From assembly GCA_047967505.1 (NCBI GenBank), contig CM106538.1: a stretch of DNA of 64,000 nucleotides. One strand, 5' to 3'. Position 1 is the stretch's first letter. Each line of letters begins with the position of its first letter. The notes under the pieces are model-generated. The model ran no database searches. It had not been told where the DNA came from and was given only the letters and a program-made list of their open reading frames with translations. The translations under genes were made by a program, and so were the position numbers. The DNA is from Dipteris shenzhenensis (Eukaryota). Positions 21,240 through 50,643 of this stretch are shown piece by piece.

Positions 21240-22325
21240 ATTAGACAAAGAAACTTGTTTTACAAAGCAGACCTTTCCTGGTAATTGCCGATGTTTTGTA
21301 TAGAAGAGGAATTGACCAGGTAATCAGAAGATGTATACAAGATCATGAGCCAAAGGCTGTCCTAGCTGAAGCCCATGGAGGACTAGCAGGAGGACACTTC
21401 TCTGGAGATATTACAGGTAAAAAGATTTTATAAGCTGGTTTATGGTGGCCTACAATTTAAAAGATGCATAATTGGGCCAAAGCATGTTTGCCATGTCAGA
21501 AAGATGATAGACTACTTGACAGTGATAGGATGCCCCATAAACCAATTCTCCCCTTGGGACCTTTTCAGAAATGGGGACTAGATTTTATTGGACCCATCAA
21601 ACCTCCAGCAAAGTTTTCATGTAATCAATATATTTTGGGTGCCACTGATTATTGTACAAAATGGGTTGAAGTTGTAGCACTCAACACATGCAAGGCTAGG
21701 ACTGTGGTACATTTCCTTTGTCACAACATTGTCACGAGGTTTGGTGTTCCTATTATGAGCTCCACCAACACACATCTAAGAGAGGAGGGTTGCTTGCACA
21801 CATGGCAAGGTGAACCACCAATCAAGAATGTACACGTGTCATCACTTCCTTTAATCCAAAAACAAGAGGCACAGGGTGTCGGGCACACTGCCCTCGAAAA
21901 AATAGGTTTTCCTGCTCACATCTCTCAAAAGAGGGAGATGGGGCAAGAAGGAAGAGGAGAGGGAGACAAGGGGCGAGGCAGGACTGAGTGGAGGGAGAGA
22001 GGGCGGGATTCAAGGGAGGAAATTCTAGTTTTCTAAGGTTAAAATCACTTCAAGACGTCCCCTTTAGACGGGTATCCAAAATGGCAAGTTTGTGGTTGCT
22101 ATAGCCTGCGGCTAGCGGGGGCAGTGCTAATAAATTATGTTACCTTTGGTATTAGGAGAACCATGACTACACACTTCCAAGTGAGGGGAGGAAAAGCATG
22201 AAAAGCATGAGGGTCTAGGTGCTTCATGAAGAAGAAGAGGAAAGCCGACAACAAGAAGATGGGCAAGGAACCCAAAACCCTTGTTTGCCCTAAACCCTTT
22301 GCACCTCGTCCTCCATGAGACAGTC

Positions 22326-26689: not shown

Positions 26690-27528
26690 TCCAATCTATG
26701 AGAGACGGTCAAAAACTTGAACAATAAACCTCGCCCTTGAAGGGGAGGAAGAAAAATTGGTTTTCATTGGAAAACATCTTACACAAGAAGATGAAACCAA
26801 GCTCAAAGCACTCCTAATGGAATATCGAGACTGCCTAGCATGGTCATACAAGGAAATGAGAGGAATTTCACCAGAAGTGGCAGTACACACGATACCTATA
26901 AGGGAGGTGCCCACCCTATGGTATGTGCACCTTATTGAACAAATCCAAAATATGGCACTATGGTTTATGACGAACTGAAAAAACTCTTAGATGCCGGATT
27001 CATCCATGAGATTGAGCACACTGATTGGGTTTCACCTATCGCCATCATGCCATTCGGCCTTTAATACCCTAGCCACATTCCAGAGAGTCATGTTCACAGC
27101 TTTCAAGTCATTTTTGAATAAGTTTCTACAGGTGTTCTTGCATGATTTGTGCATCCACTCGAACAAAAAAGACCACTTCAAATCGTTGTTTTGGGACACA
27201 TCGTTTCTCAACATGGGATTGCAATTGACATGGACAAAATCAAAATCATCATGGAATTGCCTCCTCCTACAAATTTCAAAGGTGTACAGGTCTTTATGGG
27301 ACATGTCGACTATTATAGAAGATTTATCTTGTGGTATGCCATGATAGCCAGATCACTTTACAAATTATTAGTGCAATTCTTATGGACAGAAGAGTGCGAC
27401 CAAGCCTTTGAGCTTTTAAAGTGGCGCCTAATCACAACACCCATCCTTATATCTCCCAATTGGGATACTAATTTTCATGTTCATATTGATGGCTCCAAGT
27501 ATGTAATTGGGAGTGTGCTTTGTCAACC
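26690..27528 (+). mobile_element. Ty3/gypsy RT/RNase H fragment
   Basis: EYRDCLAWSYKEMRGI, ATFQRVM, VLGHIVS, FMGHVDYYRRFI and FHVHIDGS. Confidence 0.85.
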
Positions 27529-28495
27529 TGTGAACATAAGAAAGACTACCCATTCTAAACGCATCGGCCATTCCAATGTTGAAGCACACTTTGCGAAGGT
27601 TCACTTGTTGAGAATGGAAGGAGAGACAAAGATACTTAGAGATACCTTGCATAACCTCCAAGAACAACTAACCCAAGAACAAAAAAAACTCACTGACTCA
27701 AAAATTGCAAAAGAGAGGTCACAAGAGACAATCACAAGATTAATAGATGAGAAGAACAAACTATTGAAAAAGGCTTGGTGTATCCAACAAGAGCTTGCTA
27801 CGTTGACTAGGAGATTAGAAAGGATAAAAAGAACCCCTCTAGGTTACAAGCATAGGATCAAGCCCGTGCAACCAATGGAGAGCTTGGCATATGGTAGTGG
27901 AGCAAGGAAGCGCAGGGTGAAAGCTACAAGGTATGCATATTTGGACTATTTTGTAATTATGAAGCATTACTTACAAATGAGTCATTTATTTTTCTAATGT
28001 TATCATCATTTTTGCAGAAATTTTATGGAGGAGGTTATTGGAAGAAATTCCTCGGACAAACTTTGTGTTGTAAAGAGTGTAGTTAAGAAGAAAGAATTTG
28101 TTTCTATTCTTAAGGACCCTCGTCGACATGCATTGCGACATGCAATATTACAAGAGGTTGCAACTGATTTAGAGAATCTTGTAGATCCATCGGAAGTTGT
28201 CCATGCATGTGATGCTGCTAGCATTAGTCAGCAAGGGTACTTAGCTATCTATAATGTCTTTGTAAATGCACTTTGAGGTCAAGGCATTAAGAATCCTCTA
28301 TTGCCGAGACTAGTATACATTAGAAATGCAAGGAAAGAAACAAATTCTGTTGTTCAAGATTTGTTGGGTGGATTTATACACGTCTTAGAAAGCATGACGT
28401 TGGAAGGCACAAACAAGACAAATGTGCAACATAGCAAAAAGAAAGGAGGACCAACTACCAAAGGGGCAAAGCAAGGACAAAGAACCTTTGAGTAC

Positions 28496-29486
28496 TGTTA
28501 TGGATAAAATTGTCTAAGGAAAAAAGGCATTAATATGTGTGTGTGTTTGTATATGTGGCAATAGTATAATAAAATATGGTGTGCATAGGGCCCAGGGTTG
28601 AGGTGGCAGGGCATGACCATGTGCCACCCTTCCATGTAAGAGGACCCATAAGGTGTGTTGTACATAATCCATGATAGTAATATTATAAAATGCAAGGTGG
28701 CATGGCTCCTCCATGTGCCACCCCTCCACCTAGGCTGCATTTAGTGAGATATGGCTCAAAGTCCATGGGAGAAGCAATATAAAATAGGTGGAGATGGATA
28801 TTATATTGAGTTATACCCTCCATATGAGATAAGCCCATGTGGGGGAGGTATAGAAGGACCAAGAGAGCTAGTTAAATAATGGGGAAAGTAGGATGAGGTG
28901 GCAAGATTCCTTGTGCCAACCCTCCACTTGTCCTCCTAGAGGTTTGAACATATTATAAAATTGGAAAGAGACCAAGGGAGTATCATAGACTTGAGATATG
29001 GGGCTTGATTTATGTGGAAAATTGAGGCAAAGGGTTGTCGCACACAATTGAGAGTGCGTACCCACCTAGCCCACATGGGAGACTTTTCCACACACACCAT
29101 GCATGTGGGAGGATACATTAATGTGGAGAGACCCCCTCTTTTGGCTATAAAAGGAAGGGGCTATTCCTTGATGAGACACGCTCATTCTTGTAAAGCCACC
29201 TAGCTAGTATTTTGATATTTCCCTCTCATCCCTTCTTTCAAATAAAGTATGATTCTCTTCCCTTGATGTCTACATCTCAACATTCCTCCTCCTATCATGT
29301 ACATGCTTCTCTTCCCTCTCTCCCTTTCCCCTTGTGTCATAGTCTCCCTTTTCCTTCCCTCCACTTCTAATTCCTTTTTCACCCCTATGACATCCCTTCG
29401 CCCTCTCGATCTCCTTTTCTCTATGGCCTTTGAGCGTCGCCATACTTAGCCTCTAGCCTCTGGTCTCGATAACTTTTCTGGCTAAA
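28496..29486 (+). repeat. 5' LTR
   Basis: TGTTATGG...GGCTAAA; by eye it differs from the 3' LTR by about 4 substitutions and one 1-bp indel. Confidence 0.95.
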
Positions 29487-29492
29487 AGTTTT

Positions 29493-29510
29493 TGGTGTGG
29501 CTGCTGGGAT
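29493..29510 (+). promoter_or_regulatory. Primer-binding site complementary to tRNA-His
   Basis: TGGTGTGGCTGCTGGGAT is the reverse complement of ...ATCCCAGCAGCCACA-CCA, the plant tRNA-His(GUG) 3' end as I recall it. Confidence 0.8.
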
Positions 29511-29624
29511 CCGAATCTCCACGGCTGGTGGCGAATCTTCTATTTGTACGGGTTACATCAACAAAACTATACCATCTGTGCTCTTTCTAAGCTACTGCGC
29601 GGCGTGCATTCGATTCGTGCGCTC

Positions 29625-29810
29625 CAGTTCTCTGGACTGCTGCGACTTCTGGTTACAGACAGTTTTCTGCGCTCACCTGCGTGACAGTTCTCTGGACTGC
29701 TGCGACTTCTGGTTGCGGACAGTTTTCTGCGCTCACCTGCGCGATAGTTCTCTGGACTGCTGCGACTTCTGGTTGCGGACAGTTTTCTGCGCGACAGTTC
29801 TCTGGACTGC
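29625..29810 (+). repeat. 60-bp tandem repeat (~3 copies) in the retrotransposon leader
   Basis: AGTTCTCTGGACTGCTGCGACTTCTGGTT units start at ~29625, 29685 and 29745, with a partial fourth. Confidence 0.9.
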
Positions 29811-30222
29811 TCTGGTCGCCGGACTGTTTTCTGAGCCCCCTGCAAAAGAGTAACAGCAGATCCCGCGCCCCCCCCGATCTCTTCCTCTTCTTCTTCTTCT
29901 CTTTCTCTTTCTCTTCTCCTTCTCCTCTCCTCTCCTCTCTTTTTATTAAAGAGTAGGATTGGAACCCAAGACCTCCCCCTTCACAAAAGAAAGTCTTATC
30001 ATTGGGCCAACAAGTTGAAAGTGGTAAAAATGTACTGATTTTTGTTCATATATTGAAATCGCGGGAGCTGTAACTCTCTAACTGTAAGGAGTTTGCTCTT
30101 GCTGCAAAAAGCAAAAATATTTCATTTTATGTGCTCTATCCACATCTCTTGCTAGATCGCCAATTCAGAACTTCTCCAAGCTCACTTCACGGACACACGC
30201 CTCACGAGAAGGGTGGACATTT

Positions 30223-30633
30223 ATGTCACTTCTCGACGCGTTTAAGGAATTGGTGCCTGTTCTTTCGCACCTTACAGCTACCAATACACGAGATGTCTTC
30301 CTTGATCTTCATGTCGACCTTCAACGACTGATTGTCCAGTGCATTATTGATGGTGATGACGGGTGGAATGACACACCGTGGATGATTCATGGTGAAGAAG
30401 TACCGATACGCTGGGAGGATTTTGACTTTACTTCTGCTCATTGTGCGGTGATCGAACTACTTGCTGCTTCAGAGGTAATTAAAACGGTATCTTTCATCGA
30501 AGGGTGGGATGCTCCCCAAGCTTGGGGGGAGATTTGGCGCATCTGCTTGTTGATTCCTATGGAAAAGCTCGTCCTGAATGGTTTATTCACAATCTCATTA
30601 CAAAGGTTTCTAGGCCTTGGCTATGGTTGGTAA
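30223..30633 (+). CDS. Retrotransposon leader ORF1, 136 aa, unknown function
   Basis: ATG-started ORF whose TAA overlaps the next ATG (TAATG). Confidence 0.5.
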   Translation: MSLLDAFKELVPVLSHLTATNTRDVFLDLHVDLQRLIVQCIIDGDDGWNDTPWMIHGEEVPIRWEDFDFTSAHCAVIELLAASEVIKTVSFIEGWDAPQAWGEIWRICLLIPMEKLVLNGLFTISLQRFLGLGYGW

Positions 30634-30857
30634 TGTTTCGACCAAGGAATCCATTTGTACCTAATCAGCCTTTTGTGCCTCATTTCGAGCTTCAAATTGT
30701 AATTCTTTTTGGGCTTAAGATAAACTATCAACAAAGAATTGCAAGTTTATTTGGTGTTGAACGTTTAGCTCAAGTGTTGAATTCTCCCCACCCTCTCCTC
30801 CTACCTATCTTGGACTACCGAGAAACTTGGGATGTCCGCATTCTAGTCTTGGTGTGA
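30633..30857 (+). CDS. Retrotransposon leader ORF2, 74 aa, unknown function
   Basis: MFRPRNPF...RILVLV; bounded by TAATG and TGATG stop-start overlaps. Confidence 0.5.
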   Translation: MFRPRNPFVPNQPFVPHFELQIVILFGLKINYQQRIASLFGVERLAQVLNSPHPLLLPILDYRETWDVRILVLV

Positions 30858-31321
30858 TGACATCTTGGATTCTTCAATTTGATGGAGCTTACAAACCTTC
30901 GACCAAGGCGGCTGGCGTGGGTGTGAAGCTCACTTCACCGGGTGGTGAGGAGTATTGTTACAGCAAGTCTTCACCCGCAAGTACTTGCAATCAAGCTGAG
31001 TACTCGGTGCTCATTTTTGGGCTACAAAAGGCACAAGAACATCATGCCAAGCAATTGGAGGTGCAAGGAGATTCTCAACTAGTGTGTGAACAAGTTAGTG
31101 GAAGGTGGAAGGTGCGGAGCAAAGGCTTGGTTCCACGACATCAACAAGCCTTGGAACTTTGCAACCAATTTGAAGAGGTAAAAATTCAGCATATCCCTCG
31201 AGCTCGAAATCTTGTTGCTGATTTCTTGGCACGTGAAGCTTGTATTTCAATCACGCATGATGCGAGTGGAAGCGCCACCCCAACAAAGCCGCAAGCCACG
31301 AAGGAGGGTGATCGTTTGTAA
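30857..31321 (+). CDS. Additional (archaeal-type) RNase HI as a stand-alone ORF upstream of gag
   Basis: WILQFDGA, CNQAEY, VQGDSQLV and HIPRARNLVADFLA supply the four acidic RNase HI residues. Confidence 0.9.
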   Translation: MTSWILQFDGAYKPSTKAAGVGVKLTSPGGEEYCYSKSSPASTCNQAEYSVLIFGLQKAQEHHAKQLEVQGDSQLVCEQVSGRWKVRSKGLVPRHQQALELCNQFEEVKIQHIPRARNLVADFLAREACISITHDASGSATPTKPQATKEGDRL

Positions 31322-31457
31322 GGAATGCAAAGGTTGTGGTCATCATGAAACTAAGTGTTGGGCGTACTTAATACGAGTTCACCGACTTCGGAAGATCATC
31401 AGGAGGGTTCTCAAGGACATTGCTCAAAAGAAGGATGCCAGACCACACACCCCTTGA
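31257..31457 (+). CDS. Small basic CCHC zinc-knuckle ORF (66 aa)
   Basis: CKECKGCGHHETKC fits C-x2-C-x4-H-x4-C, flanked by Arg/Lys-rich segments. Confidence 0.6.
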   Translation: MMRVEAPPQQSRKPRRRVIVCKECKGCGHHETKCWAYLIRVHRLRKIIRRVLKDIAQKKDARPHTP

Positions 31458-31814
31458 AGAAATAGCATGGCGACTACAAGAACTGGAAGAAGCTGAAGGT
31501 GATGTGCAAGCTCTCCAACTGTTGACATTTGTCATGGCATTCTTGTTTGCCTTGATGAACAACCTCATGCAACGCCGCGCCTCTAACCCTCGCGTGTAAT
31601 GATCAATGTGATATCATGAGAGTTGGTCCTTTTAAGATTGTCTATGTGCTATTCTATGCTGAAGATTCTTCTCGTGTAATATTTCACACTACACCAGTCA
31701 CACCCTACCCTGCCTATGTGTGCTTTTTGGATGTATCTTCACCCGATTTTCAGTTCAAGCTTCCTCTTACTATTGTTCATCCATAGATAAGCCCCTCTTT
31801 TCCATCTTCCAAGC

Positions 31815-32765
31815 ATGGCTGACATTCCCGTGTTTTGTGGACGGGTAGAAGAAAATCCAAATGAGTATCTTGTGGCTTTCAAGCGCCGTTGTGTTTCTCT
31901 CAACTTTCTTACTGAAGACAGATGGCTATTGGTTCTTCCCACATTTCTAGAAGGTTTGGCTCAAGTGTGGTATGAGAAGCAAGCCGAAGATGTTCGCCAA
32001 AGCTGGCCAAGGTTGACAGCAGCAATGATTGAGTATTTCGGCAAAGAAGAGGAGACGGAGAATGTGTACCTGCAGGTGGCAAATTTGAAGCAGTCAGAAG
32101 GTGAGATGGCGCGTCGATATGTGGATCGAGCGGCCGTGCTCCTAGACCGTTTGATTGCCACACAGGAGGACAATGCCGGGTTTCGAGCTGGAATGACTCA
32201 GCATGTGCTGGGCTACCTTGTAGCAGGAGCGAGTGATGAATTCCGCCTCAAGCTTAAATGGGAGAATCCAGAAACTATGGTGCTAGCACATGAGATTGCT
32301 CAAAAGTTTGATAAAGTTCAGTCTGACCCCACTTCAAAGAAGATGATTGTCCCTCCGCATCCCCCTCAATTCCTGCAACAACAACCTGGGGGGTCTAACT
32401 CAGGGGCATACCCCCACCCCTCATCAGGGATGTATCCACCGCCTCCACCTCAAATGTATGGTCCTCCCTTAGATGCTTACCCTCAACAAGGTGGATATCC
32501 TCATCCTCTGCCTCAAAGATTTCCCCAGCCTCGCCCATGAGCTCCCCTCCTCTCTACTCCCGTGGCCCCTCCAACTAAAGAGGCCCCCCCTGCAACAGAA
32601 CCTGGAGTCAATGACTTAGCCAAGGTCCTGAATGATCTTTGGCTTGAGATGGTGGGCATCAGAAATCAAGCCAACCGCCCTCCAAGAGATCGTGCTAATG
32701 TTGTATGCTACGAGTACCACCAGAAGGGTCATTATCGCACAGAATGCCCAATATTCCGAGGGTGA
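31815..32765 (+). CDS. gag, with an in-frame TGA at 32538-32540
   Basis: Retrotransposon gag-like PVFCG..ENPNEYL and FLEGLAQVWY, a Pro-rich linker, and a degenerate knuckle CYEYHQKGHYRTEC in the same frame after the stop. Confidence 0.85.
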
Positions 32766-35700
32766 ATCTTCTAAGTGAGTCGGGCACTGAGGATTCTGAT
32801 GTGGAGATCCTTGATCTCAAGAAAAGAACTCGTGCTACCTCGGACCCCTCTCCAAACCGTGGACCGAGCTACCCCAGGAAGAAGGTGTCCTTCTCAAAGC
32901 CCTCAGATGCTGAGATGGCAGACCCACCAACAGAGAAGACTAAAAGATCTCGCAGGAGTAAGTGGTCACCCTCGGATTTTCCCATCGGCTCAGGGCAAGA
33001 GGACTATTCGGTCGTTCAAGACCTTGCTCATCGGTCTTTGAGCATCACACTCCCTCAACTAATAGCATTAACCCCTAAGGTTAGACGTGAGCTGCAGCAA
33101 GGTCTCTCAACAAGGAAGAGCAACAAAAAGGGAAAGGTACGAGAGGTATCTTCTATCTCTGAAGAAATTGATCGGCACCCACACACAATAGATGTCATCA
33201 TAGATAATTGCCGTGTCAAAAATGTGTGTGTTAATGGGGGAGCTGCATGTAATATCATGGTGCCCCGAATCATGAAGAAATTGAATTTGAAATGTACAAG
33301 GCGTTCCTCCACTCGAATCAAGGTAGCAGATGGTCGACGACTCGCCACCATGGGAGTCATTGAGGATTTGCCCATCACTGTCAATGGGTTGACCACCACT
33401 GTCAATTTCTATGTAGTGGACATTGAAGATACAGGCAGAAGTTACCCAGCCATACTCGGGAGACCATGGTTGAGAAAAAGTGATGCAGTCAGCTATTGGA
33501 AGACAGGACACATGTCTTTTGGTGCTTCCAAGGAGAAGATCCCGGTGCAACCTGGTGCCATGGAACCGGAAGAAGAAGAGGAGCATGACAGTGATACTAT
33601 CTCATCTTCTGTGTCTGAGTCCATGGAAGAATCAGACGGGAGGGACGAATTCTCAAAGGAGGAAGTTTACATGATGGGGGTGTCTCCGACCCTGCCACCT
33701 GTAGAAAAGATAACAGCTAGTCCTCAACAGCTCGAATCAATGCTTTCTCCAGACCTCACTCCAAGTGAGAAAGATGAGTTTCTTGAAATGTTCAAAGATT
33801 TCCCTGACCTCTTTGCAACTAGCTACCACCACCTTCGCCATGTGACTGCCATAGAGCACAAGATAGAGCTAAAGCCTGATGCAAAGCCTGTGGCTCAGAA
33901 GTATCAGAGATTAGGGCCCCTGCAGACCGACGCTTTGCGCTCAGAGTTGCAGAAGCTTGTAGAGGCTGGGTTTATTGTTCCGGTTCACAATACTGAATGG
34001 GTTTCACCAGTGGTAGTCATCCCAAAGGAAAACAACAAGTGGCGGGTCTGCATCGACTATAAGAAGCTCAATGCTGCCACCAAGAGGGATCATCATCCTC
34101 TACCCTTTCAAGACCTCATTCTTGAGAAGGTAAGTGGTCATGAGATGTATACTTTCTGTGATTGTTACTCTGGGTTTTATCAAATCAGAATTGCCGAGGA
34201 AGATGTGCTTAAAACCACATTTGCCACACCCTGGGGGACATTGGCATTCAAAGTAATGCCATTTGGCCTCACCAATGCTCCTGCCACCTTTCAAAGATTT
34301 ATGCAGATGGTGTTTGCTCCTTATTTGGGGGATTTCTTGGAGGTGTTTTTAGATGATTTCTGTATATTCTCATCACGTAAGGAGCACATCATGAAGGTTA
34401 GATTGACCTTCCAAAGGGTCAATGATGCAAATGGCAGTCTCAACCCTGAGAAATGCACCATTGGAGCCACTCAAGGGAGGTTATTGGGACATGTTGTCTC
34501 ATCCGAGGGCATCAAGCCTAACCCCGAGAAGGTAGAAGCCATCCTCAAACTCTCCCCACCTACAACCAAACGTCAGGTACGCTCATTTGTCAATCTAGCA
34601 GGATACTATCGCCGCTTCATTGATCAGTATGCTGCTTTGACATGGCCCATGACTATGCTATTGAAAGATGGGGTTGATTTTTCTTGGGATGAGGATTGTG
34701 ATCATGGTTTTGCACAAATCAAGAATGCTTTGGCTTCAGAACCCATTCTACGTAATCCAGACTGGTCAAAGACCTTCTATATCAATCCTGGGTTTGGTGA
34801 GCACACTCTGGCAAGTATTCTTCTCCAGCAAGGGGAGGATCGGTTCATGTATCCCGTTCGATTTGCTTCTCGACAATTGCTCGACACTGAGCGACGCTAT
34901 TCAGAGGCCGACAAGCATGCCTTGTCTTTGGTGTTTTGCATTGAGAAATTTAAGCATTATGTGGCTAGAAAGTCCTTCTTTATACTCACTAGCACTGGTC
35001 TTGCAAAGCAGGTTCTTCAATCACCAAATCCCATGGGCCGGTTGGCCAAATGGTTGGCAGTTCTACAAGAATATGATTTTTCTTTCAAAATTGTAAGAGG
35101 GGGTTGTTCCAACTTGAAGAATGCTTTGATTGATTTAGAGGAGTGCCTTGATGTAACCTTTGTAGCAGCCATAGAAGTTGGGGATCCTTGGTATGGTGGT
35201 ATCTACAAGTTTTTGACCGCTTTCTCCTTTCCTTCAGAAAGTACTAGCTATGAGAGAAAGAAGATCCGCAGAGATAGTAGGCGCTACACCCTCCTTGATG
35301 GGGTGTTGTACCGTCAAGGCATGGATGGGGTACTCAGATGGGCCATTGATGCAGATGAAGTGCCTAAGGTATTGAAGCATTATCATGATGGATTTTGTGG
35401 AGGCCACTATGCCAGTGACTATACAGCTAAGAAGATTTTACATGCTGGATACTATTGGCCGACCTTGTTCAAGGATGTCACTTTGTATTGCAAAACCTGT
35501 GAACCATGTCAATTCTTCGGTAGGAAGGATTTGCGTCCCGGGCAACATCACCCAGTGATGTCCATCCATCCGTTTCAGAAATGGGGAATAGATTTTGTCG
35601 GGCCCTTGCCCATGACTGCCCGCAAAAAGAAGTATCTTTTGGTAGCGACTCAGTATGTCACTAAGTGGGCTGAAGCTATCACCCTCTCTGCTGCAAATGG

Positions 35701-36505
35701 CAAGGCAGTTTCAAATTTCATATTTGAACGTATTTGCACAAGGTTTGGGACACCCATGGAGATAGTCTCTGAGCATGGGAGTCCATTCTTAAATGAAGCA
35801 GTGGAGTTACTCATGGATCGTATGGGCATTGATCATCACACTTCTAGCATCTATTATCCAGCATCCATGGGTCAAACAGAGCAGACCAATGGCCTCCTTT
35901 GTAAAACCATGGGAAAGATGGCCGCAGGGAACAGGAGCCAATGGGATCAGAAGGTCACTGAAGCCATGTGGGCTTACAACATCACTCATAAAACATCTAC
36001 AGGTCACACCCCTTTTGAGTTGGTGTATGGTACTGAGGCAGTTTTACCACTAGAGATAGAGATTCCGGCCTTGAGATTGGCACAGGAACAGAGGATGACA
36101 GAAGATGAACATGTAGAGGCCAGATTGGTACAACTTGAGAAGTTAGATGAAACCCGACGCCTTGCACTACACCAAACAGAGATCCAAAAGAATCGACAAA
36201 AGGCTCGATTGGATGCTAAGATTCGCAAGGGATGGGAAAGACACTTTGCTGAGGGGGATGTTGTGCTATGCTTTGATAACAGATTGGACCACCAAATGGA
36301 TAAGAAGTTTCTGCCACTGTGGGCTGGTCCATACAAAGTCATCAAAGAACGTAGCAATGGGTCTGTACAAGTTCAGGAGCTGCATGAACCATATGGCAAG
36401 AAGGTGATCAACAAGCGTTACCTCAAGCCTTTCTTTGTGCGTGATGGTCCCAGGCATGGAAATGCTATGCATTCCCTGCCTGGGGGGGGGAACTGTTATG
36501 GATAA
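32705..36505 (+). CDS. pol polyprotein (protease, RT, RNase H, integrase), 1266 aa
   Basis: VNGGA (protease site, D>N), ILGRPWL, WRVCIDYKKLN, MPFGLTNAPATFQR, VFLDDF, HHCC zinc finger, KWGIDFVGP and GPY; gypsy domain order. The ORF ends inside the 3' LTR. Confidence 0.97.
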   Translation: MLRVPPEGSLSHRMPNIPRVNLLSESGTEDSDVEILDLKKRTRATSDPSPNRGPSYPRKKVSFSKPSDAEMADPPTEKTKRSRRSKWSPSDFPIGSGQEDYSVVQDLAHRSLSITLPQLIALTPKVRRELQQGLSTRKSNKKGKVREVSSISEEIDRHPHTIDVIIDNCRVKNVCVNGGAACNIMVPRIMKKLNLKCTRRSSTRIKVADGRRLATMGVIEDLPITVNGLTTTVNFYVVDIEDTGRSYPAILGRPWLRKSDAVSYWKTGHMSFGASKEKIPVQPGAMEPEEEEEHDSDTISSSVSESMEESDGRDEFSKEEVYMMGVSPTLPPVEKITASPQQLESMLSPDLTPSEKDEFLEMFKDFPDLFATSYHHLRHVTAIEHKIELKPDAKPVAQKYQRLGPLQTDALRSELQKLVEAGFIVPVHNTEWVSPVVVIPKENNKWRVCIDYKKLNAATKRDHHPLPFQDLILEKVSGHEMYTFCDCYSGFYQIRIAEEDVLKTTFATPWGTLAFKVMPFGLTNAPATFQRFMQMVFAPYLGDFLEVFLDDFCIFSSRKEHIMKVRLTFQRVNDANGSLNPEKCTIGATQGRLLGHVVSSEGIKPNPEKVEAILKLSPPTTKRQVRSFVNLAGYYRRFIDQYAALTWPMTMLLKDGVDFSWDEDCDHGFAQIKNALASEPILRNPDWSKTFYINPGFGEHTLASILLQQGEDRFMYPVRFASRQLLDTERRYSEADKHALSLVFCIEKFKHYVARKSFFILTSTGLAKQVLQSPNPMGRLAKWLAVLQEYDFSFKIVRGGCSNLKNALIDLEECLDVTFVAAIEVGDPWYGGIYKFLTAFSFPSESTSYERKKIRRDSRRYTLLDGVLYRQGMDGVLRWAIDADEVPKVLKHYHDGFCGGHYASDYTAKKILHAGYYWPTLFKDVTLYCKTCEPCQFFGRKDLRPGQHHPVMSIHPFQKWGIDFVGPLPMTARKKKYLLVATQYVTKWAEAITLSAANGKAVSNFIFERICTRFGTPMEIVSEHGSPFLNEAVELLMDRMGIDHHTSSIYYPASMGQTEQTNGLLCKTMGKMAAGNRSQWDQKVTEAMWAYNITHKTSTGHTPFELVYGTEAVLPLEIEIPALRLAQEQRMTEDEHVEARLVQLEKLDETRRLALHQTEIQKNRQKARLDAKIRKGWERHFAEGDVVLCFDNRLDHQMDKKFLPLWAGPYKVIKERSNGSVQVQELHEPYGKKVINKRYLKPFFVRDGPRHGNAMHSLPGGGNCYG

Positions 36506-37483
36506 AATTGTCTAAGGAAAAAAGGCATTAATATGTGTGTGTGTTTGTATATGTGGCAATAGTATAATAAAATATGGTGTGCATAGGGCCCAGGGTTGAG
36601 GTGGCAGGGCATGACCATGTGCCACCCTTCCATGTAAGAGGACCCATAAGGTGTGTTGTACATAATCCATGATAGTAATATTATAAAATGCAAGGTGGCA
36701 TGGCTCCTCCATGTGCCACCCCTCCACCTAGGCTGCATTTAGTGAGATATGGCTCAAAGTCCATGGGAGAAGCAATATAAAATAGGTGGAGATGGATATT
36801 ATATTGAGTTATACCCTCCATATGAGATAGGCCCACGTGGGGGAGGTATAGAAGGACCAAGAGAGCTAGTTAAATAATGGGGAAAGTAGGATGAGGTGGC
36901 AAGATTCCTTGTGCCAACCCTCCACTTGTCCTCCTAGAGGTTTGAACATATTATAAAATTGGAAAGAGACCAAGGGATATCATAGACTTGAGATATGGGG
37001 CTTGATTTATGTGGAAAATTGAGGCAAAGGGTTGTCGCACACAATTGAGAGTGCGTACCCACCTAGCCCACATGGGAGACTTTTCCACACACACCATGCA
37101 TGTGGGAGGATACATTAATGTGGAGAGACCCCCTCTTTTGGCTATAAAAGGAAGGGGCTATTCCTTGATGAGACACGCTCATTCTTGTAAAGCCACCTAG
37201 CTAGTATTTTGATATTTCCCTCTCATCCCTTCTTTCAAATAAAGTATGGTTCTCTTCCCTTGATGTCTACATCTCAACATTCCTCCTCCTATCATGTACA
37301 TGCTTCTCTTCCCTCTCTCCCTTTCCCCTTGTGTCATAGTCTCCCTTTTCCTTCCCTCCACTTCTAATTCCTTTTTCACCCCTATGACATCCCTTCGCCC
37401 TCTCGATCTCCTTTTCTCTATGGCCTTTGAGCATCGCCATACTTAGCCTCTAGCCTCTGGTCTCGATAACTTTTCTGGCTAAA
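36494..37483 (+). repeat. 3' LTR, preceded by a G-rich PPT (36482-36492)
   Basis: Direct repeat of 28496-29486. Confidence 0.95.
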
Positions 37484-39779
37484 AGTACACAGAGCATAAT
37501 AATGTTTTTTTGGATGTATGTAGGGTCCAAGCTACAATGGTGGAGTTTTACAACATGAAAGCATGGGGTAGGTTAAAATTATATTGTTTAGAGAGCTGGA
37601 ATTTTTATTGAAATCTTTTCTAATCATGTAAATCTTTTAATCTTTCAGATTGTGAAGGAAAGTTAGTATTTGTTATCAAATTGGATGAGTGTGAGGTTGT
37701 AAAAGGCCACAAGTTGGAGAGGGTTAGTATTACTTTGATGAATAAAGCCCTCGAACATGCCAAAGATAAAGATTTTAGTGTGCAATCGAAAAAGCACATT
37801 TGGTGGCTTGTCGGGTTTGAACTTCCTAAAGAGACACACTCATTCTTGAAATGGGTATTTGATAGATCTCCAATTCTAAGTGTCATAAATGCGCAAACGG
37901 AAGGAGAGTTGCTTCAAGTTGAAGGGTTCATATCATTTAAAGTTGAATGGCACATGGCAGGAGATCTTAAGACATTGAAGTGTATATTTGGAACGGAGTT
38001 GAGTGCAAATGCGACATATTCATGTCTTTATTGTATGCACTCACACCAACCTTGAGGCAGTAACATAGGAATACATAGAGGGAAAGAGCAAATAAAAAGA
38101 GGAAAAGACTTTGGGAATGCTAAAGATGTAATGAATGACATCATAGATTATGAGGCTAACAAACGGATGTATTGGAGCAATGGAGTAATGGGTTATAATC
38201 AGGATGCTGCACCCAACAGAGATCAGAACAATAAAAATTGGGATCCAATTTTAAACATTCCATTACAAAGAGTGCATTTTTGTGTGTTACATGCGGAGAT
38301 GCGGCTCATTGATAAATTGCTTTACTTGCACATTGTATATGCATGGAACATGAAACCGAAGGAGAGAGCGGCATCATGTATAGCAAGGGCCAAAGCTTTA
38401 CTCTCGAGCATGGGTCTACATGGGGGGAATGTAAAGCTAATCAAAGACGCACAATTGTCAGGAAAATCGGGAAATCTTCCAAATAAAGTGTCCATGGGAG
38501 GCTCTAAGGCACGAAGGTTTTTGTCCAATCATGGAAAACATCGATTAAATCTGCATTGGAATTATTGGAAAAAGTTATGTGATTGCACCACTAATTTGGA
38601 AGCTGATCCTCATGTTAGAACCTTGAGAATATGTGTTTGGAAAGAATTGGATAATCTGGTAAAGATCTTGAGGAAGCCTTCCATAGACGATGATGATGTG
38701 CAACTATATAAAGTCATCGTGAAAGAGTTCATTGAAGCCATGGTAGATGGATGGGGTGAATCACACATTACTCACTACATGGTGTGTTTGGTCTTTGCTA
38801 TTTTCAAAATTATAATTGCAATCAATTTATTATTGTTTACCTCATGTGTTTTTTCTATGTATGCAACACATTCTTTATGCTCATGGTCCATGGTTTCTTC
38901 GCCAATATGGTTCCTTGAATGCTTGGACTGCCCAAGGGATGGAAAAGTCTCATTATAGAGCTCGAGGTGCTTATTTCAAGAGTATGCGACATGGAGGGGG
39001 GATTAATGGAAGTAATGCTCTTCATGAGATGTTCGAGTGATTCTATCGTGGTATAGTCAGCTCCTCCTATGCAAGGAATAAAGCTTTGCAAACGGAGTTA
39101 GCCCAAGCAGTTCGTCGAACTCAAACGAGTAAAAGAAGGCATTCATGGATATCTTTGCAAGCTTCCCAAAAACATAGAAGTTGGATAGCAACCAAAAGTC
39201 GTGTTGGAAAGCGTTAGATCGCTAAACCAAGTGTACTTTGATGTTAATTAAAATCACACTTCAATATTTCTTGTGGACATTTGATTAATTGGCTCTTTGA
39301 AAAAAACAAGCGTTAAATTTTGTACTTGTGGACCCAACAAGGGTGGGCGATCAGAAAAGGTTGGGGAAGCGACCTCACGGGAGTTCAAGGGGAATTTCAA
39401 AAACCCCTTAAATAAGTTTTTTTCCCAAAAACAAACACCCCTCCTCTTCACGTAATTTTTTTCTAAAGTTGAATTTAAAAACCAAATGTTATAATGAACT
39501 AAGTAATTTTTTTGATAAATATCCCTTCTTTACAATGCACGTGGTACACTAAAATTTTGTGAGGTTAACCCCCGAGGGGACGATGACAAATAGGGGGGGG
39601 GGAGGGGTTGAGGGGGGTAAAGGGGGAAGGGAGGGGGGGGCTAACTAATAATGATGCACAAAATAAATATACCCCTATATATATGCAAATACCTTCATTT
39701 TCTCAGTACCACCAGTACTCTCTCATACTAGTACATTCCTTCCTACCATTACATTTCCCATAGCCCCACCATCATCGAC

Positions 39780-40870
39780 ATGGCAAGAATAAAGCAGACT
39801 GGAAGACCGGTAACTCCTAATCCCTCCCGATGTATACAATGCAATGATCGAAGAGAGAAGAAAGAGGAGGCAAGAGGAGGAGGAGAGGACAGAAACCAAT
39901 GAGTAAACAGATGATGATGAAGAAGATCATGGGGAGCAATCCAATTCTCAGAGTCAGCTCAAGAGCCAGAAAGCAAACCAGAAGAACAGGAGCGCAAAAG
40001 ACGCAGATTGGAAGAATGGGCCAGAGGACAAGAAGATGCCAGGAAAATGCGGATTCAATTGGCTCAACAGTAAAGGGCACAAATGGAGAGCCAACAACAA
40101 CGACCCGCATGGCACAATGCTACTTAGGACTTTCCACATTCTAGACAGGGTGGAAAATCTTTGCCAGAATTGCATCGCACAGCAAAAGGAAAAGGCAAAG
40201 CTCGTAGTAGGCGAGGTGGAGGTGGAGGTGGAGGTGGAGGTGGAGGTGGGGAGCAATCCAATTCTCAGAGTCAGCTTAAGAGCCAGAAAGTAGACCAAAA
40301 GAACAGGAGCGCAAAAGACGCAGATTGGAAGAATGGGCCAAAGGATAAGAAGATGCCAGGCAAATGCGGATTCAATTGGCTCAACAACAAAGGGCACAAA
40401 TGGAGAGCTAACAACGACGACCCGCATGGCACAATGCTACTCAAGACTTTCCACATTCTAGACAGTGTGGAAAATCTTTGCTAGAATTGCATCGCACAGC
40501 AAAAGGAAAAGGCAAAGCTTGTAGTAGGCGAGGTGGACGTGGAGGTGGAGGTGGAGTCCCTAGAAGACACCGCAGAAAGCCTCAAAGGAAGGCGCTTCAA
40601 GAGATAAGAAAGTATCAAAGTAGTGTGAACCTTCTAATCCCAAGAGCTCCGTTCGCTCGATTGGTGAAAGAGATTATGCAGTCCTACAGGGACAACTATC
40701 GTATTCAATCAATCGCACTGGTTGCCATACAAGAAGCAGCAGAAGGGGTGATCATAACCCTTCTTGAGGACACAAACTTGTGTGCAATCCATGCCAAGAG
40801 GGTTACGATCGTGGCAAAAGACATGCAGCTAGCAAGGCAGATCAGAGAAGACCCACAACTTAGGCCATAG
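39780..40870 (+). pseudogene. Histone H3-like gene of element A with an extended, internally duplicated N-terminal region
   Basis: Starts MARIKQTGR. Histone fold [28 protein letters not shown]...[17 protein letters not shown] stop and frameshifts lie in between; TATA-like TATATATA at ~39676. Confidence 0.85.
39931..40556 (+). repeat. ~317-bp tandem duplication inside the H3-like gene
   Basis: GGGGAGCAATCCAATTCTCAGAGTCAGC begins at 39931 and 40248; both copies end in (GGAGGT)n. Confidence 0.9.
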
Positions 40871-43415: not shown

Positions 43416-46151
43416 ATGGCCGATACTAGTGAGTCACTATCTGAGAAGAAGCGATTACACCATCTTCACATCGACTTGGAAGAACAATATGCTCCAGCAC
43501 AAAAAAGACGAAAGGATACGGTGCTGAATGCTCAACAGCGGGAAAATATGAGAAGAGAAGGGCTTCAACATATTGACTTATGGTGCGACGGAAGCATATA
43601 TCCAAAATGTCAAGTAAAAAACTCTACACCTCCATTTGTCAATCCCACCACATTACTGAGGTTTGCCGGCGATGGACAAAATGGACTTCTTGGTTATATT
43701 TCAGCGCAATCTGCATTTGTGGAAACGTATAAAATGATGTACCTACAAGAAAAGGGGGCCAAGATGGAGGAGATAGCCATTCGTGGAAAATTGGAGCAGC
43801 AGTTGCAGAATGAAATCGAGGAGCATTCAAAGAGTAAAAAAGAATTGACAAGAGCAAGAAAGAAGAGAACCGTGCTTGGAGACAGACAACGTAGCAGGAA
43901 GATTAAAAACATTGCAAATTTGAAGGCTGGGACTGGTGGATGCAAGCGACGAATTCAGGAAGCAAGGTTAGATTGAAATTTATCATTTTGTATACTCAAA
44001 AAGGCTCTCTTCCAGACTATATCTATTTCGTTGATTGTCGCAAAATAAGAATGGAGGTGCTGAATAATATAGTCATATAATGTTGTTATTACAGGAAATT
44101 ATTGGAGCCTGCAAAAGAAAATATGGACCCGAACCTTCTTCCTGTTAAACAAATGAAAGGATTGCTTTCTTGCGGTGTAGCAAAAGGTTTGATTGAGGAA
44201 AAAAAATACAAAACAGTCAAACGCAATGTTGTAGAGGACTTTGTATCCAATAATCAAGTTGATGGCACTATAATCCAAGAGGCTCTTGATGTTAGTGGAG
44301 TTAGCAGGAAGGGATATAGTTCGATTTTCCATGCGATATCCTCAACTTTGAAAGATCAAAGGATTAAACGAGTTTTACTGCCAAATCCAGCAACCGTGTG
44401 GAGGATAAGAGGTCATTTGAATGAAAGTATAGATGAATTTATTGGGCAGTATATCCATATTGAAGAAATATTTCATGGTGTTAAAGGAACCACTGTGTAT
44501 GATCCTTGGAACAATATATTTTTAGATCTGCAACAACTTCAAAAAAGAATGGTCGAGTTTTATGGAATAACATTTGAGGAGTGCAAAGGCATTTTGAAAT
44601 TTGTTATCAAACTGGATGAGTGTGAGGTTGTAAAGGAAAAGAAAATGGAAAGAGTTACTATTACATTGATGAATGGAGCGATTGATACATCATTGACTGA
44701 AGCGAGTTCAAAGTATTTTAGTGTGCAGTCAGAGAAACACATATGGTGGTTAGGCTCGTTCCAGGTATGATCATGGGCTGTTTTATACTTGATTTTGGTC
44801 ATTGTTTTCAAATCTGATATAGTAATACTTTTGTTTTCTATAATCTCGCAGGTGAAGACCGAAGACCATGAAACACTAGATTGGGTGTTTCATCACACGA
44901 AAATACCAACAATAATCAAAAGACAAGTGCAAGGCGAGAATCTCCATGTTGCAGGAAAAGGTGATTTTCAAGTAGAGTGGCACATGGCCGGGGATCTTAA
45001 AACACTTAAGTGCATGTATAACATTAGTAAAGGAGGCAACTCAAAGTCTCCTTGTCTTTACTGCAAAGAATCAGCTCAAGTAATGGATTCAAAATGGTGG
45101 AAGAGAGCACCTAATAGAGATAAAGTTGACCCTGACTTCAAGGCCATTCTGGACATTCCACTATGTAATGTTCACATCTGCACATTGCATGGTCTATGTC
45201 GAATTATTGAGAAATTGGTATTTTTATATATTGGATTTGCTTGGAAACTCCGTCCCGAAAAAAATAGAAAGGATGCTCTTCAAGCATTGGAAAAAGTGTT
45301 ATCCGATATAGGTCTGCATGGAGGAGATGTTCAAATCACAAAGGATTTTAAAAAGTCTACCAATGGCAAGGAGGTACCAATCAAGCCCTCTATTGGTGGT
45401 GTTAAGGCAAGAAGATTCTTGTCTCGACCCAAACACAGTAAGCAAGTAAGGCAAGGTAGAGCAGTTTCAAAGATTAATTATGGATTGTGGAAGCAAGTCC
45501 ATAATGCTGTGAAAGATCATGAGGCAGATGGGGAAGCACGAAATAGGAAGGCAGAGGTGTGGAGGTCTCTTGATCAACTCTTCATGTTCTGTGACAAAGT
45601 AACATGGACAAAGAGTGATTACAAGAACTTTGAGGAGGCAATTAAACATTTTGGGAAGTCAATGAAAGACGCGTGGACAGCCTGCAATATAACTCACTAC
45701 ATGGTAAGGTTCTGTCTTTTTCTTTTACTTAAGTGTGATCCTCTTTTTTTTATTACTTACTATGCATTCTTATGTCTTACAGCATATCATATACAACCAC
45801 CTTCCCTATTTTGTCAAAAAGTATGGATGCCCAGCTATTTGGTCTACCCAAGGCATGGAGAAGTCTCACTACATGGCACGTAATGCATTTTTTAGACACA
45901 CACAACACTATGGAGGGAGTCAGAAGGCGAATAGTCTGAAGGAAGTCTTCCAATGGTTTTACCGAGGCATACTACAAAGGCTGCATGCTAAAAGAAAAGT
46001 TGCTAGCTCCAAAATCAAGCTTGCTTTTCTTCTAGCCCAAAAGCAAAGACGAAGACAAGCTCTAGACAATTCAATTGCAGCAAAGAGACATAGACAGTGG
46101 AGGGAATCGAAGATATTTAGAAACCATAAATGGACAAGTAAACATGAATAG
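43416..46151 (+). CDS. RAG1/Transib-like DDE transposase; exons 43416-43966, 44095-44764, 44852-45703, 45783-46151; ~813 aa
   Basis: GT-AG introns join the ORFs in frame. VIKLDEC (D1), EDHETL, AGDLK (D2), CLYC, CTLH, HIIYNH and QGMEKSH (E) occur in RAG1-core order. Confidence 0.85.
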
Positions 46152-49648: not shown

Positions 49649-50580
49649 TGGGTTCTCCCCTTAGTCTCTGCAATCTTTTTGCCTAAAATAGAAAAAATAC
49701 ATACTGTATGGAAATGCATAGACTCAAACCAAGACAAAGAAATCACTGTAGGAAAGCAGATCTTCAAGTGTGATATTTGCATGTGATCTTCTTGCATAAC
49801 CTCCATTCATACTGTATTTGGTTGGAGAAACATAGAAATCACTGTAGGAGTGCACCAGCATGTCATTTAGAAAATTTGCAGCAAAATGCGATGTGGACCT
49901 GTTTGAAATTCCAAACTGCTCATATCGCATTTTATTGCAAATTTCTCTATTTGGCTTCTTCCACCCCTGTGATTGCCTTTTCTTTGTGAGAACATGTTCT
50001 GGTTTTTTGACTTCCATAGCTGTAGTCTTCTTGCATAAACTCCATTCATACTGTATTTGGCTGGAGAGACAAAGAAATCACTGTAGAAGTTCACCAGCAT
50101 GTCATTTCAGAAATTTGCAGCAAAATGCGATGTGGACCTGTTTGAAATTCCAAACTGCTCATATCGCATTTTATTGCAAATTTGTCTATTTGGCTTCTTC
50201 CACCTCTGTGATTGCCTTTTCTTAATGAGAACATGTCTGGTTTTGTGACTCCCCTTAGTCTCTGCAATCTTCTTGCCTAAAATAGAAAAATTACATCCTG
50301 TATGGAAATGCATAGGCTCAAACCAAGACAGAGAAATCACTGAAGGAATGCAGATCTTCAAGTGTGATATTTGCATGTGATCTTCTTGCATGACCTCCAT
50401 TCATACTGTATTTGGTTGGAGAAACATAGAAATCACTGTAGGAGTGCACCAGCATTTCATTTAAAAAATTTGCAGCAAAATGCGATGTGGACCTGTTTGA
50501 AATTCCAAACTGCTCATATCGCATTTTATTGCAAATTTCTCTATTTGGCTTCTACCACCCCTGTGATTTCCTTTTCTTTG
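49649..50580. repeat. Second repeat array with the same hairpin core (3 cores)
   Basis: AAATTTGCAGCAAAATGCGA...TCGCATTTTATTGCAAATTT at 49872, 50111 and 50466; ~49650-49990 is repeated at ~50250-50580. Confidence 0.9.
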
Positions 50581-50643
50581 TTAGAACATGTTCTTCATGT
50601 CTTTGATCTCTTTCCAATCCTTTGTATGCAGTTTTTCAGAGTG

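Follow-up and report, generated by a model that had tools for sequence, protein, structure and literature searches.

A probable multi-gene accessory cassette upstream of gag in a Tat-like LTR retrotransposon of Dipteris shenzhenensis

Long terminal repeat (LTR) retrotransposons of the Tat lineage can carry an archaeal-type RNase H (aRH) in an open reading frame (ORF) of its own upstream of gag, an arrangement designated structure #4 and described, in the available text, for Tat B of mosses and Tat C of Selaginella tamariscina (Biryukov and Ustyantsev 2023, PMC10508981). The part of a 2026 paper available to us names this structure 'pre-capsid' and draws it as gag, pol and a solo aRH (PMC13468544), while the 2023 authors ask how the aRH can function from a separate ORF (PMC10508981). 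Here we describe the region ahead of gag in an LTR retrotransposon of Dipteris shenzhenensis, contained in a stretch of 64,000 nucleotides from GenBank assembly GCA_047967505.1, contig CM106538.1, which is referred to below as the window. An initial annotation had singled out this region as a chain of short ORFs coupled by overlapping stop and start codons. The observation is real and half of it lies beyond chance, and the accessory cassette that was proposed on its basis is supported, which leaves that annotation partly confirmed. We consider it very probable that the element is of structure #4 type and holds a genuine multi-gene cassette.

The likeness to structure #4 consists of the Ty3/gypsy order of the pol domains with flanking LTRs, an archaeal-type RNase H, a separate ORF for it ahead of gag and a degraded native RNase H, and placement in Tat rests on these features and not on a reverse transcriptase (RT) phylogeny. 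The difference lies in the company that the aRH keeps. Whereas the published descriptions, in the parts available, show a solo aRH, here it occupies third place among five conserved ORFs, and stop/start overlaps are conserved as well. The terms 'eORF' and 'zinc' are absent from the main text of the 2023 paper as available (PMC10508981), and the supplements of both papers may list further ORFs. What seems to be new is the set of genes around the RNase H and the conserved coupling at their junctions, the RNase H itself having been described before. Accessory ORFs of unknown function likewise stand beside gag-pol in seed-plant elements of the same lineage, as the Tat/Ogre eORFs (Ustyantsev et al. 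2015, PMC4408406). Those, however, are single ORFs in sense or antisense orientation with PMD, coiled-coil or Tr28 domains, and the present ORFs matched none of the corresponding Pfam families. Outside plants, the available part of a study of the Drosophila MDG1 group likewise places small ORFs, sORF1 and sORF2, between the 5' untranslated region (UTR) and gag, one of which is short and single-pass membrane-like with a basic stretch (10.1101/2025.03.14.642691).

Two further groups of systems resemble the locus in the packing of their ORFs. Stop and restart codons that share a base (UAAUG, UGAUG), with the downstream ORF out of frame, are found in calicivirus VP1/VP2, in influenza B M1/BM2 (TURBS) and in SART1, a retrotransposon precedent that uses UAAUG reinitiation (PMC10275272, in the portion available). 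The Dipteris junctions share this layout, but differ from the TURBS systems as there described in that two or more successive events would be required and in that only a UGGGA, found by eye, accompanies them, with folding that is not significant. Caulimoviridae are plant reverse-transcribing elements related to Ty3/gypsy and have several packed ORFs before the capsid gene. Their pregenomic RNA is polycistronic and, according to the same source, is translated by TAV-dependent reinitiation (PMC10275272). The likeness to the Dipteris element lies in the closely packed ORFs ahead of the capsid gene, whereas the Dipteris element has LTRs and an integrase. Pfam detected no TAV-like transactivator among ORF1, ORF2, ORF4, ORF5 and the ORF at 31616-31786, although a very divergent factor is possible.

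Overlapping stop and start codons ahead of gag

An ORF check recovered every member of the chain where the initial annotation had placed it. The features from the 5' UTR to the base before gag are listed here, with the evidence for each in brackets.

29490..30222, plus strand: 5' UTR, poor in ATG codons, in front of ORF1 (ATG count, repeats)
30223..30633, plus strand: ORF1, 136 aa, acidic (isoelectric point, pI, 4.4), of no known family (relatives of conserved length)
30633..30857, plus strand: ORF2, 74 aa, basic (pI 9.7), of no known family (relatives, synonymous variants)
30857..31321, plus strand: aRH, 154 aa, an archaeal-type RNase H in an ORF of its own with a separate ATG and stop (Pfam RVT_3)
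31257..31457, plus strand: ORF4, 66 aa, very basic (pI 11.0), with C-X2-C-X4-H-X4-C spacing (synonymous variants)
31435..31599, plus strand: ORF5, 54 aa, with an acidic helix, a hydrophobic membrane-like segment and a short basic tail (relatives)
31600..31814, plus strand: variable spacer before gag, holding a 6-codon ORF (31599-31619) and an ORF at 31616-31786 (indels, frames in relatives)

Read in order, the seven ORFs of the chain occupy frames f1, f0, f2, f0, f1, f2 and f0. The four overlaps of a stop with a start codon are present as first noted, namely TAATG at 30631-30635, TGATG(A) at 30855-30860, TAATG at 31597-31601 and ATGA at 31616-31619, and the gag ATG lies at 31815. At the first of these the ATG of ORF2 shares its A with the ORF1 stop, and at the second the TGA of ORF2 shares its A with the ATG of the aRH. 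ORF4 starts 65 nt upstream of the aRH stop, in a +1 frame overlap, and ORF5 starts 23 nt before the ORF4 stop. The tiling was said to be without gaps, which is nearly so, although 28 bases separate the stop of the ORF at 31616-31786 from the gag ATG.

How often such overlaps arise was assessed by counting cases in which the stop of an ORF of at least 50 aa overlaps the first ATG of another ORF of at least 50 aa. The window holds three among 100 ORFs on the plus strand, two of which are ORF1/ORF2 and ORF2/aRH, and one among 103 ORFs on the minus strand. In simulated sequence (300 first-order Markov runs of 64 kb each) 0.67% of ORFs showed such an overlap, and none of the 300 runs produced a chain of three ORFs of at least 50 aa joined in this way. 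With a rate of about 1% elsewhere in the window, 0.67% in simulation and no chain in 300, the ORF1/ORF2 and ORF2/aRH overlaps together are therefore not a matter of chance. The claim that all four overlaps are unlikely by chance holds for these two and fails for the two around the 6-codon ORF, which are ordinary. A stop overlapping the ATG of any ORF of at least five codons is seen at 11 of 100 plus-strand and 13 of 103 minus-strand ORFs, and because overlaps of that kind occur at 11-13% of ORFs, those around the 6-codon ORF carry no weight. As a chance control, two exact overlaps among ORFs of at least 30 aa were observed at 41161-41289-41507, within a low-complexity stretch.

The junctions can also be followed in relatives, which were taken from public protein sets; counts below are among the relatives listed. 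The ORF2 relatives share their end residue and the aRH relatives share their first Met, so that in most family members, provided that no indel intervenes, the A of the aRH ATG doubles as the final base of the ORF2 stop. Relative P0025, from a cluster of 34, has one extra codon before the ORF2 stop, which still abuts the aRH start. The ORF2/aRH overlap is beyond chance and is kept in the family. The ORF1/ORF2 overlap is likewise beyond chance and is probably kept where ORF1 ends in GW and ORF2 starts with MF; this junction is less uniform than ORF2/aRH because the N-termini of ORF2 vary. The ORFs do not fuse into one frame in the family, fusions being confined to one of 21 ORF2 relatives (P0009) and one of 26 ORF5 relatives (P0047). 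Both fused forms look decayed: P0009 joins ORF2 with an aRH whose RNase H part is also broken, and P0047 joins the tail of ORF4 with ORF5. Conservation of the ORF boundaries among relatives extends to ORF1, ORF2, aRH and ORF5; it does not extend to the 6-codon ORF or to the ORF at 31616-31786.

The genes of the cassette

The stretch ahead of gag had been described as a leader, and this it is not, as it holds at least four, and probably five, real genes. Relatives contain counterparts of ORF1, ORF2, aRH and ORF5 whose lengths and ends are the same, in agreement with the proposal of a retrotransposon carrying an accessory cassette upstream of gag. None of ORF1, ORF2, ORF4, ORF5 and the ORF at 31616-31786 matched a Pfam family.

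ORF1 is exactly 136 aa long, with the same start (MSLL) and end, in 16 of the 25 listed relatives, which are 53-57% identical to the copy in the window with no indel. An unchanged length at about 55% identity is difficult to account for unless the protein is under selection. A profile search of 1.84 billion representatives returned eight proteins, including members of 135 and 147 aa. By these sequences ORF1 is a real, fast-diverging protein gene, and it would be the first long ORF met by a scanning ribosome. Its family could not be named: there was no Pfam match even at E 10, an AlphaFold2 model (pLDDT 72.7) gave no Foldseek match to the PDB at E <=0.001, and the best hit of a wide structure search (STAS-like, Z 5.9) lies below the level of chance matches. 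In the ESM Atlas the highest scores were to unnamed clusters (0.91) and to F-box clusters (0.87), no more than a lead. The F-box likeness was followed to a LELPxDLQ stretch that can be seen by eye in distant members, and is unsupported. A side observation concerns its rate of change. Compared with the same set of relatives, the window copy shows identities of 0.86, 0.83 and 0.85 in ORF2, aRH and ORF5 but only 0.55 in ORF1, and among those relatives all four genes are 0.86-0.94 alike, with ORF1 at 0.93. The likely causes are exchange of ORF1 as a module or a burst of change in the window copy.

ORF2 has the same end residue in 17 of 21 listed relatives, with one more ending at the same alignment column, and 13 of the 21 start with MF[HR]. 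The Pfam search gave no indication of function, the best ESM Atlas score was only 0.76, and comparison by eye found no likeness between the N-terminal region of ORF2 and the N-terminal extensions of stand-alone aRH homologues.

The product of 30857-31321, labelled an RNase H from the outset, matches Pfam RVT_3 at E 6.5e-25, and its profile matches the RNase HI structures 4e19 (Halobacterium RNase H1), 3hst (Rv2228c) and 2ehg/3aly (Sulfolobus tokodaii). The catalytic residues D9, E48, D72 and D122 are invariant in 26 aligned sequences. Among the 29 listed relatives, 27 start with M[TS]SWILQF and 14 are full-length at 154 aa, with the same stop where the C-terminus was read. The ORF ends 494 nt before the gag ATG. 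The native RNase H of Pol presents a different picture. When it is aligned to Ty3 (4ol8, 7q5b) and the columns are counted by hand, G, H and T stand opposite the catalytic D, E and D of the Ty3 enzyme, the fourth residue lying beyond the alignment. The native Pol RNase H thus appears dead and the upstream aRH intact. Because the aRH has kept its catalytic residues and that of Pol has lost three, the aRH would be the working RNase H of the retrotransposon.

ORF4 bears out the label of CCHC protein in part. The C-X2-C-X4-H-X4-C spacing is present by eye, and no Pfam zinc-knuckle match was obtained up to E 10. Its C-terminal residues recur in P0047 with K/R and D/N swaps. ORF5 is exactly 54 aa in 20 of 26 listed relatives, and its core is nearly invariant across 15 aligned sequences. 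It starts with MPDH, its highest 19-residue Kyte-Doolittle mean is 1.78, and three Arg fall within the nine residues after the hydrophobic segment. By the criteria in the available text, sORF2/FAST-like proteins measure 60-210 aa, cross the membrane once, carry MGxxxS/T at the N-terminus and have a polybasic stretch beyond the transmembrane segment (10.1101/2025.03.14.642691). ORF5 falls outside these criteria, being shorter than the 60-aa screen at 54 aa and lacking the MGxxxS/T myristoylation motif, and it has no sequence likeness to sORF2. A role in cell fusion is doubtful because the host has cell walls.

The cassette probably ends with ORF5, as the spacer at 31600-31814 looks non-coding. 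The chain was thought to run on to gag, but the 6-codon ORF and the ORF at 31616-31786 lie in a stretch that varies by indels and in frame, and seven ATGs intervene. Relatives P0035, P0112 and P0044 continue past the ORF5 stop, none of them in the frame of 31616-31786, and this stretch varies in length among them.

Variation among copies gives a second view of selection. Variants were read from contigs of four public runs, taken to be DNA or of unknown kind, with one guessed to be RNA, and those classified are the best-supported 40 of 534 variable places together with 12 of 46 indel rows. In the annotated frame, synonymous variants make up 5 of 6 in ORF2, 5 of 8 in aRH and 5 of 7 in ORF4; pooled, this is 15 of 21 against an expected fraction of 0.30 (p 9e-5), with no excess in the other two frames. 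Read in those frames, ORF2 has 2 and 1 synonymous variants (of 6) and ORF4 has 1 and 1 (of 7). For comparison, gag has 5 of 8. None of the 40 variants falls in 31458-31599, and 6 of the 12 indel rows lie at 31689-31794, with none in 30223-31599. A 1027-nt contig that spans 30717-31743 differs by 45 substitutions and no gap. At codon 94 of the aRH (31136) a C>T stop variant is present in contigs of runs X1, X2 and X3.

The genes also seem to travel together. A contig size of 8128 nt is common to an ORF1, an ORF2 and an aRH relative, and six more pairs match likewise, which suggests that the genes sit together on one contig, although contig names were not given. Related DNA was returned neither from viral contigs with the aRH protein nor from metagenome contigs with an aRH or ORF5 alignment.

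Routes of translation

The reading that we favour, at somewhat less than even confidence, is that of a Tat-type structure #4 element with a 1.4 kb accessory cassette between its 5' UTR and gag that is translated by reinitiation. The full-length RNA, with a 5' UTR almost free of AUG, would be scanned to ORF1. A share of the 40S subunits would resume at the overlapping AUG of ORF2 once ORF1 has terminated, and at the overlapping AUG of the aRH once ORF2 has, and successive reinitiation would yield falling amounts of each product. ORF5 could be reached likewise from ORF4, as its start lies 23 nt upstream of the ORF4 stop. Gag-pol would come from a different RNA or from internal entry; it needs another route because 34 AUGs precede the gag start and place it beyond the reach of scanning. 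We may further speculate that the basic knuckle protein of ORF4 helps to bring the aRH to the RNA or the particle.

The composition of the 5' UTR fits the first of these steps. Its 733 nt contain 2 ATGs against 9.7 expected from composition, opening ORFs of 2 and 8 codons. The Poisson probability of this deficit is about 0.004 by hand arithmetic, for a tract that contains repeats. Such a scarcity of ATGs before 30223 fits a true 5' UTR leading to ORF1. Reinitiation after long ORFs is described as requiring that stop and start lie within about 20-30 nt of each other, with efficiency falling at about 30 nt, and in caliciviruses it proceeds at 3-20% efficiency per step (PMC10275272, in the available part). 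A distance within this range is found at ORF1/ORF2 and ORF2/aRH, which share a base, and at ORF4/ORF5, with the start 23 nt upstream; it is not found at aRH/ORF4 (65 nt). For the ORF1/ORF2 and ORF2/aRH junctions taken by themselves, reinitiation is a tentative proposal drawn from their sequence. A 7-bp hairpin at 30624-30644 has the UAAUG of the ORF1/ORF2 junction as part of its loop, whether the minimum free energy or the centroid fold is taken; the 141-nt segment around it, taken whole, is not more stable than shuffled sequence (z +1.38). Counted along the RNA, there are 34 ATGs from the ORF1 ATG to the gag ATG, 11 of them inside ORF1 ahead of the ORF2 start and 7 from the ORF5 stop to the gag ATG, with one from the ORF2 ATG to the aRH ATG and two from there to the ORF4 ATG.

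Several points weigh against this picture. Reinitiation after ORFs of 136 and 74 codons would be inefficient, and a restart from aRH to ORF4 would run 65 nt backwards, past the range of about 30 nt, which makes it a poor fit. RNA folding in five junction windows gave no extra stability over shuffled sequences (z -1.1 to +1.4). No rRNA-complementary element is shown, the candidate being a UGGGA at 30828-30832, noticed by eye 23 nt upstream of the ORF2 stop, with a fold z of -1.1; of the 21 ORF2 relatives listed, only P0028 and P0009 lack its Trp-Asp codons, and the other 19 retain them. Both the expression of the cassette and its mechanism are what we infer from the DNA. The genes themselves differ in how firmly they stand, and the variant counts cover only the subset of places given above. 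Only 1 of 6 variants in ORF1 is synonymous, and the case for ORF1 rests on a length conserved at low identity. ORF2 has an AlphaFold2 pLDDT of 58.8 and a language-model recognition value of 1558 against a mark of 2300, and 8 of its 21 relatives start elsewhere or in another frame. The intactness of the short ORF2 and ORF5 at 0.83-0.86 identity could stem partly from recent copying. For ORF4 no relatives were returned as separate proteins, in addition to the missing Pfam knuckle match; their absence from protein sets may be an effect of gene calling, given the 65-nt overlap with the aRH. Finally, 5 of the 29 listed aRH relatives are only 92-94 aa long and form a multi-copy sublineage, which implies that copies spread without an intact aRH of their own. 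Such truncated copies are presumably served in trans.

The main rival to reinitiation, which we hold to be rather unlikely, is that the genes are real and that every one of them has a spliced or subgenomic RNA, or an internal promoter, to itself, in the manner of complex retroviruses; the junctions would then reflect no more than packing. Splicing occurs in other plant LTR retrotransposons such as Ogre and Athila. Separate RNAs would accommodate the 34 ATGs from ORF1 to gag and the seven after the ORF5 stop, since gag at least needs another route, and they would suit the 65-nt aRH/ORF4 overlap, which reinitiation explains poorly, and the absence of special RNA structure at the junctions. However, two exact overlaps in a row are rarer than expected by chance, and relatives retain at least one of them, which packing does not require. 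The run contigs moreover show no joint that removes the cassette, a weak argument as these contigs are taken to be DNA or are of unknown kind. It is quite improbable, in our estimate, that the genes are real but reached by leaky scanning, shunting or internal entry, independently of termination upstream. The ATG of ORF1 has a weak context, with T at -3, and few ATGs lie between the later starts (one from ORF2 to aRH, two from aRH to ORF4), yet the 11 ATGs inside ORF1 would block scanning from the 5' end, and the exact overlaps would be left unaccounted for.

Fusion of ORF2, aRH, ORF4 and ORF5 by programmed frameshifts (-1, +1 and +1), with the overlaps incidental, seems more doubtful still. 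The stop-to-stop frames do overlap by 96, 139 and 85 nt, and fused proteins exist in P0009 (ORF2 with aRH) and P0047 (the ORF4 tail with ORF5). A GCG AGT G at 31262-31268 in the aRH frame, which we take to resemble the Ty3 +1 site, would join the aRH to the knuckle. The relatives P0001, P0002 and P0008, however, have Thr (HETSG) and not Ala at the place of the GCG, inspection by eye of the ORF2 frame at 30761-30857 found no X XXY YYZ heptamer, and the downstream ORFs all open with an ATG of their own, whose position is shared by most relatives. Fusions, too, amount to only 1 of 21 and 1 of 26, and the RNase H part of P0009 is broken. Hardly any weight is left for the suggestion that, the RNase H apart, the short ORFs lie in a non-coding leader and are open by chance or are the decayed remains of one longer gene. 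ORF1, ORF2, ORF4 and ORF5 are without a Pfam match, ORF2 folds poorly, and possible lesions occur elsewhere in this copy (the in-frame gag TGA and an imperfect knuckle). Against this stand the 136 codons of ORF1 without an indel at 55% identity, the frame-specific synonymous excess, boundaries that recur in dozens of relatives and the failure of 300 simulations to produce a comparable chain. For ORF1 this suggestion is already largely refuted.

Beyond the favoured reading of a structure #4 element with a cassette translated by reinitiation, a bolder version can be framed. In it, an operon-like relay of five accessory genes would run by repeated reinitiation on the full-length RNA, much like that of the related pararetroviruses but with no known transactivator, ORF1 would be a fast-evolving factor of host interaction (e.g., a silencing antagonist), and the knuckle protein would bring the trans-encoded RNase H into the particle. 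Taken as a whole, this version is unlikely.

The host element and its probable place in the Tat lineage

The host of the cassette is a young Ty3/gypsy LTR retrotransposon. Self-BLAST aligns 28494-29489 with 36492-37486 at 99.5% identity over 996 bp, and the pol domain order RVT_1, RT_RNaseH_2, Integrase_H2C2, rve, with flanking LTRs, is that of Ty3/gypsy. The parts of the element outside the cassette and 5' UTR are as follows.

28494..29489, plus strand: 5' LTR, 996 bp (self-BLAST; ends read from the letters)
31815..32540, plus strand: gag, capsid part (Pfam Retrotrans_gag, E 3.7e-5)
32705..36505, plus strand: pol with RT, native RNase H and integrase, in the -1 frame relative to gag (Pfam RVT_1, RT_RNaseH_2, Integrase_H2C2, rve)
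36492..37486, plus strand: 3' LTR (self-BLAST), preceded by a G-rich polypurine tract at 36482-36492

The true 5' LTR probably begins near 28496 (TG) and ends near 29486; a 5-bp target duplication, AGTAC, was seen by eye. Between the 5' LTR and the gag ATG lie 2325 nt. A candidate primer-binding site (TGG...), also found by eye only, begins at 29493 after the 5' LTR. The 5' UTR contains a 60-bp tandem repeat (29618-29792, 2.9 copies, 93% match) and a CT-rich tract at 29878-29941; a tRNA search of the 5' region found none, and Rfam gave only two sub-threshold matches there.

The gag ORF closes with an in-frame TGA (32538-32540), and the same frame runs for 74 codons more, to 32765. Past this TGA there is a knuckle-like motif that is imperfect, with Tyr at the second Cys position. 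A Pfam search of pol detected no protease; a motif N-G-G-A is visible by eye in the window at 33200-33260, where retropepsins have D-[ST]-G-A. The TGA, the imperfect knuckle and N-G-G-A may be a few lesions despite the young LTRs, or traits of the family.

Upstream, a frame at 27146-27994 with an RT_RNaseH_2 match (E 2.4e-11) ends about 500 nt before the 5' LTR, and the retrotransposon appears to have landed within or next to an older element of gypsy type. More copia- or gypsy-like fragments were seen by eye at 665-2692, 17095-17772 and 21461-22036. Elsewhere in the window, long ORFs without a Pfam match form two paralogous sets with 75-82% DNA likeness in parts (37624-38958, 44081-46151, 40412-40867 and 50368-51462), and a divergent histone-fold ORF lies near each set (Pfam Histone, E 1.8e-35 and 4.6e-26). 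Together these may represent a repeated unit with an H3-like gene.

For the Tat lineage, the finding means that the 'pre-capsid' RNase H, treated so far as a lone ORF, is embedded here in a conserved multi-gene cassette. Its neighbours, one basic with CCHC spacing and one small and membrane-like, together with the kept junctions, offer two ideas, namely translational coupling and recruitment by an RNA-binding partner. If reinitiation is true of this element, serial reinitiation after long ORFs, so far known mainly from viruses, would have a natural example in eukaryotes. If the genes are instead expressed from spliced RNAs, the element would still be a 'complex' LTR retrotransposon with more accessory genes than have been described for the lineage.

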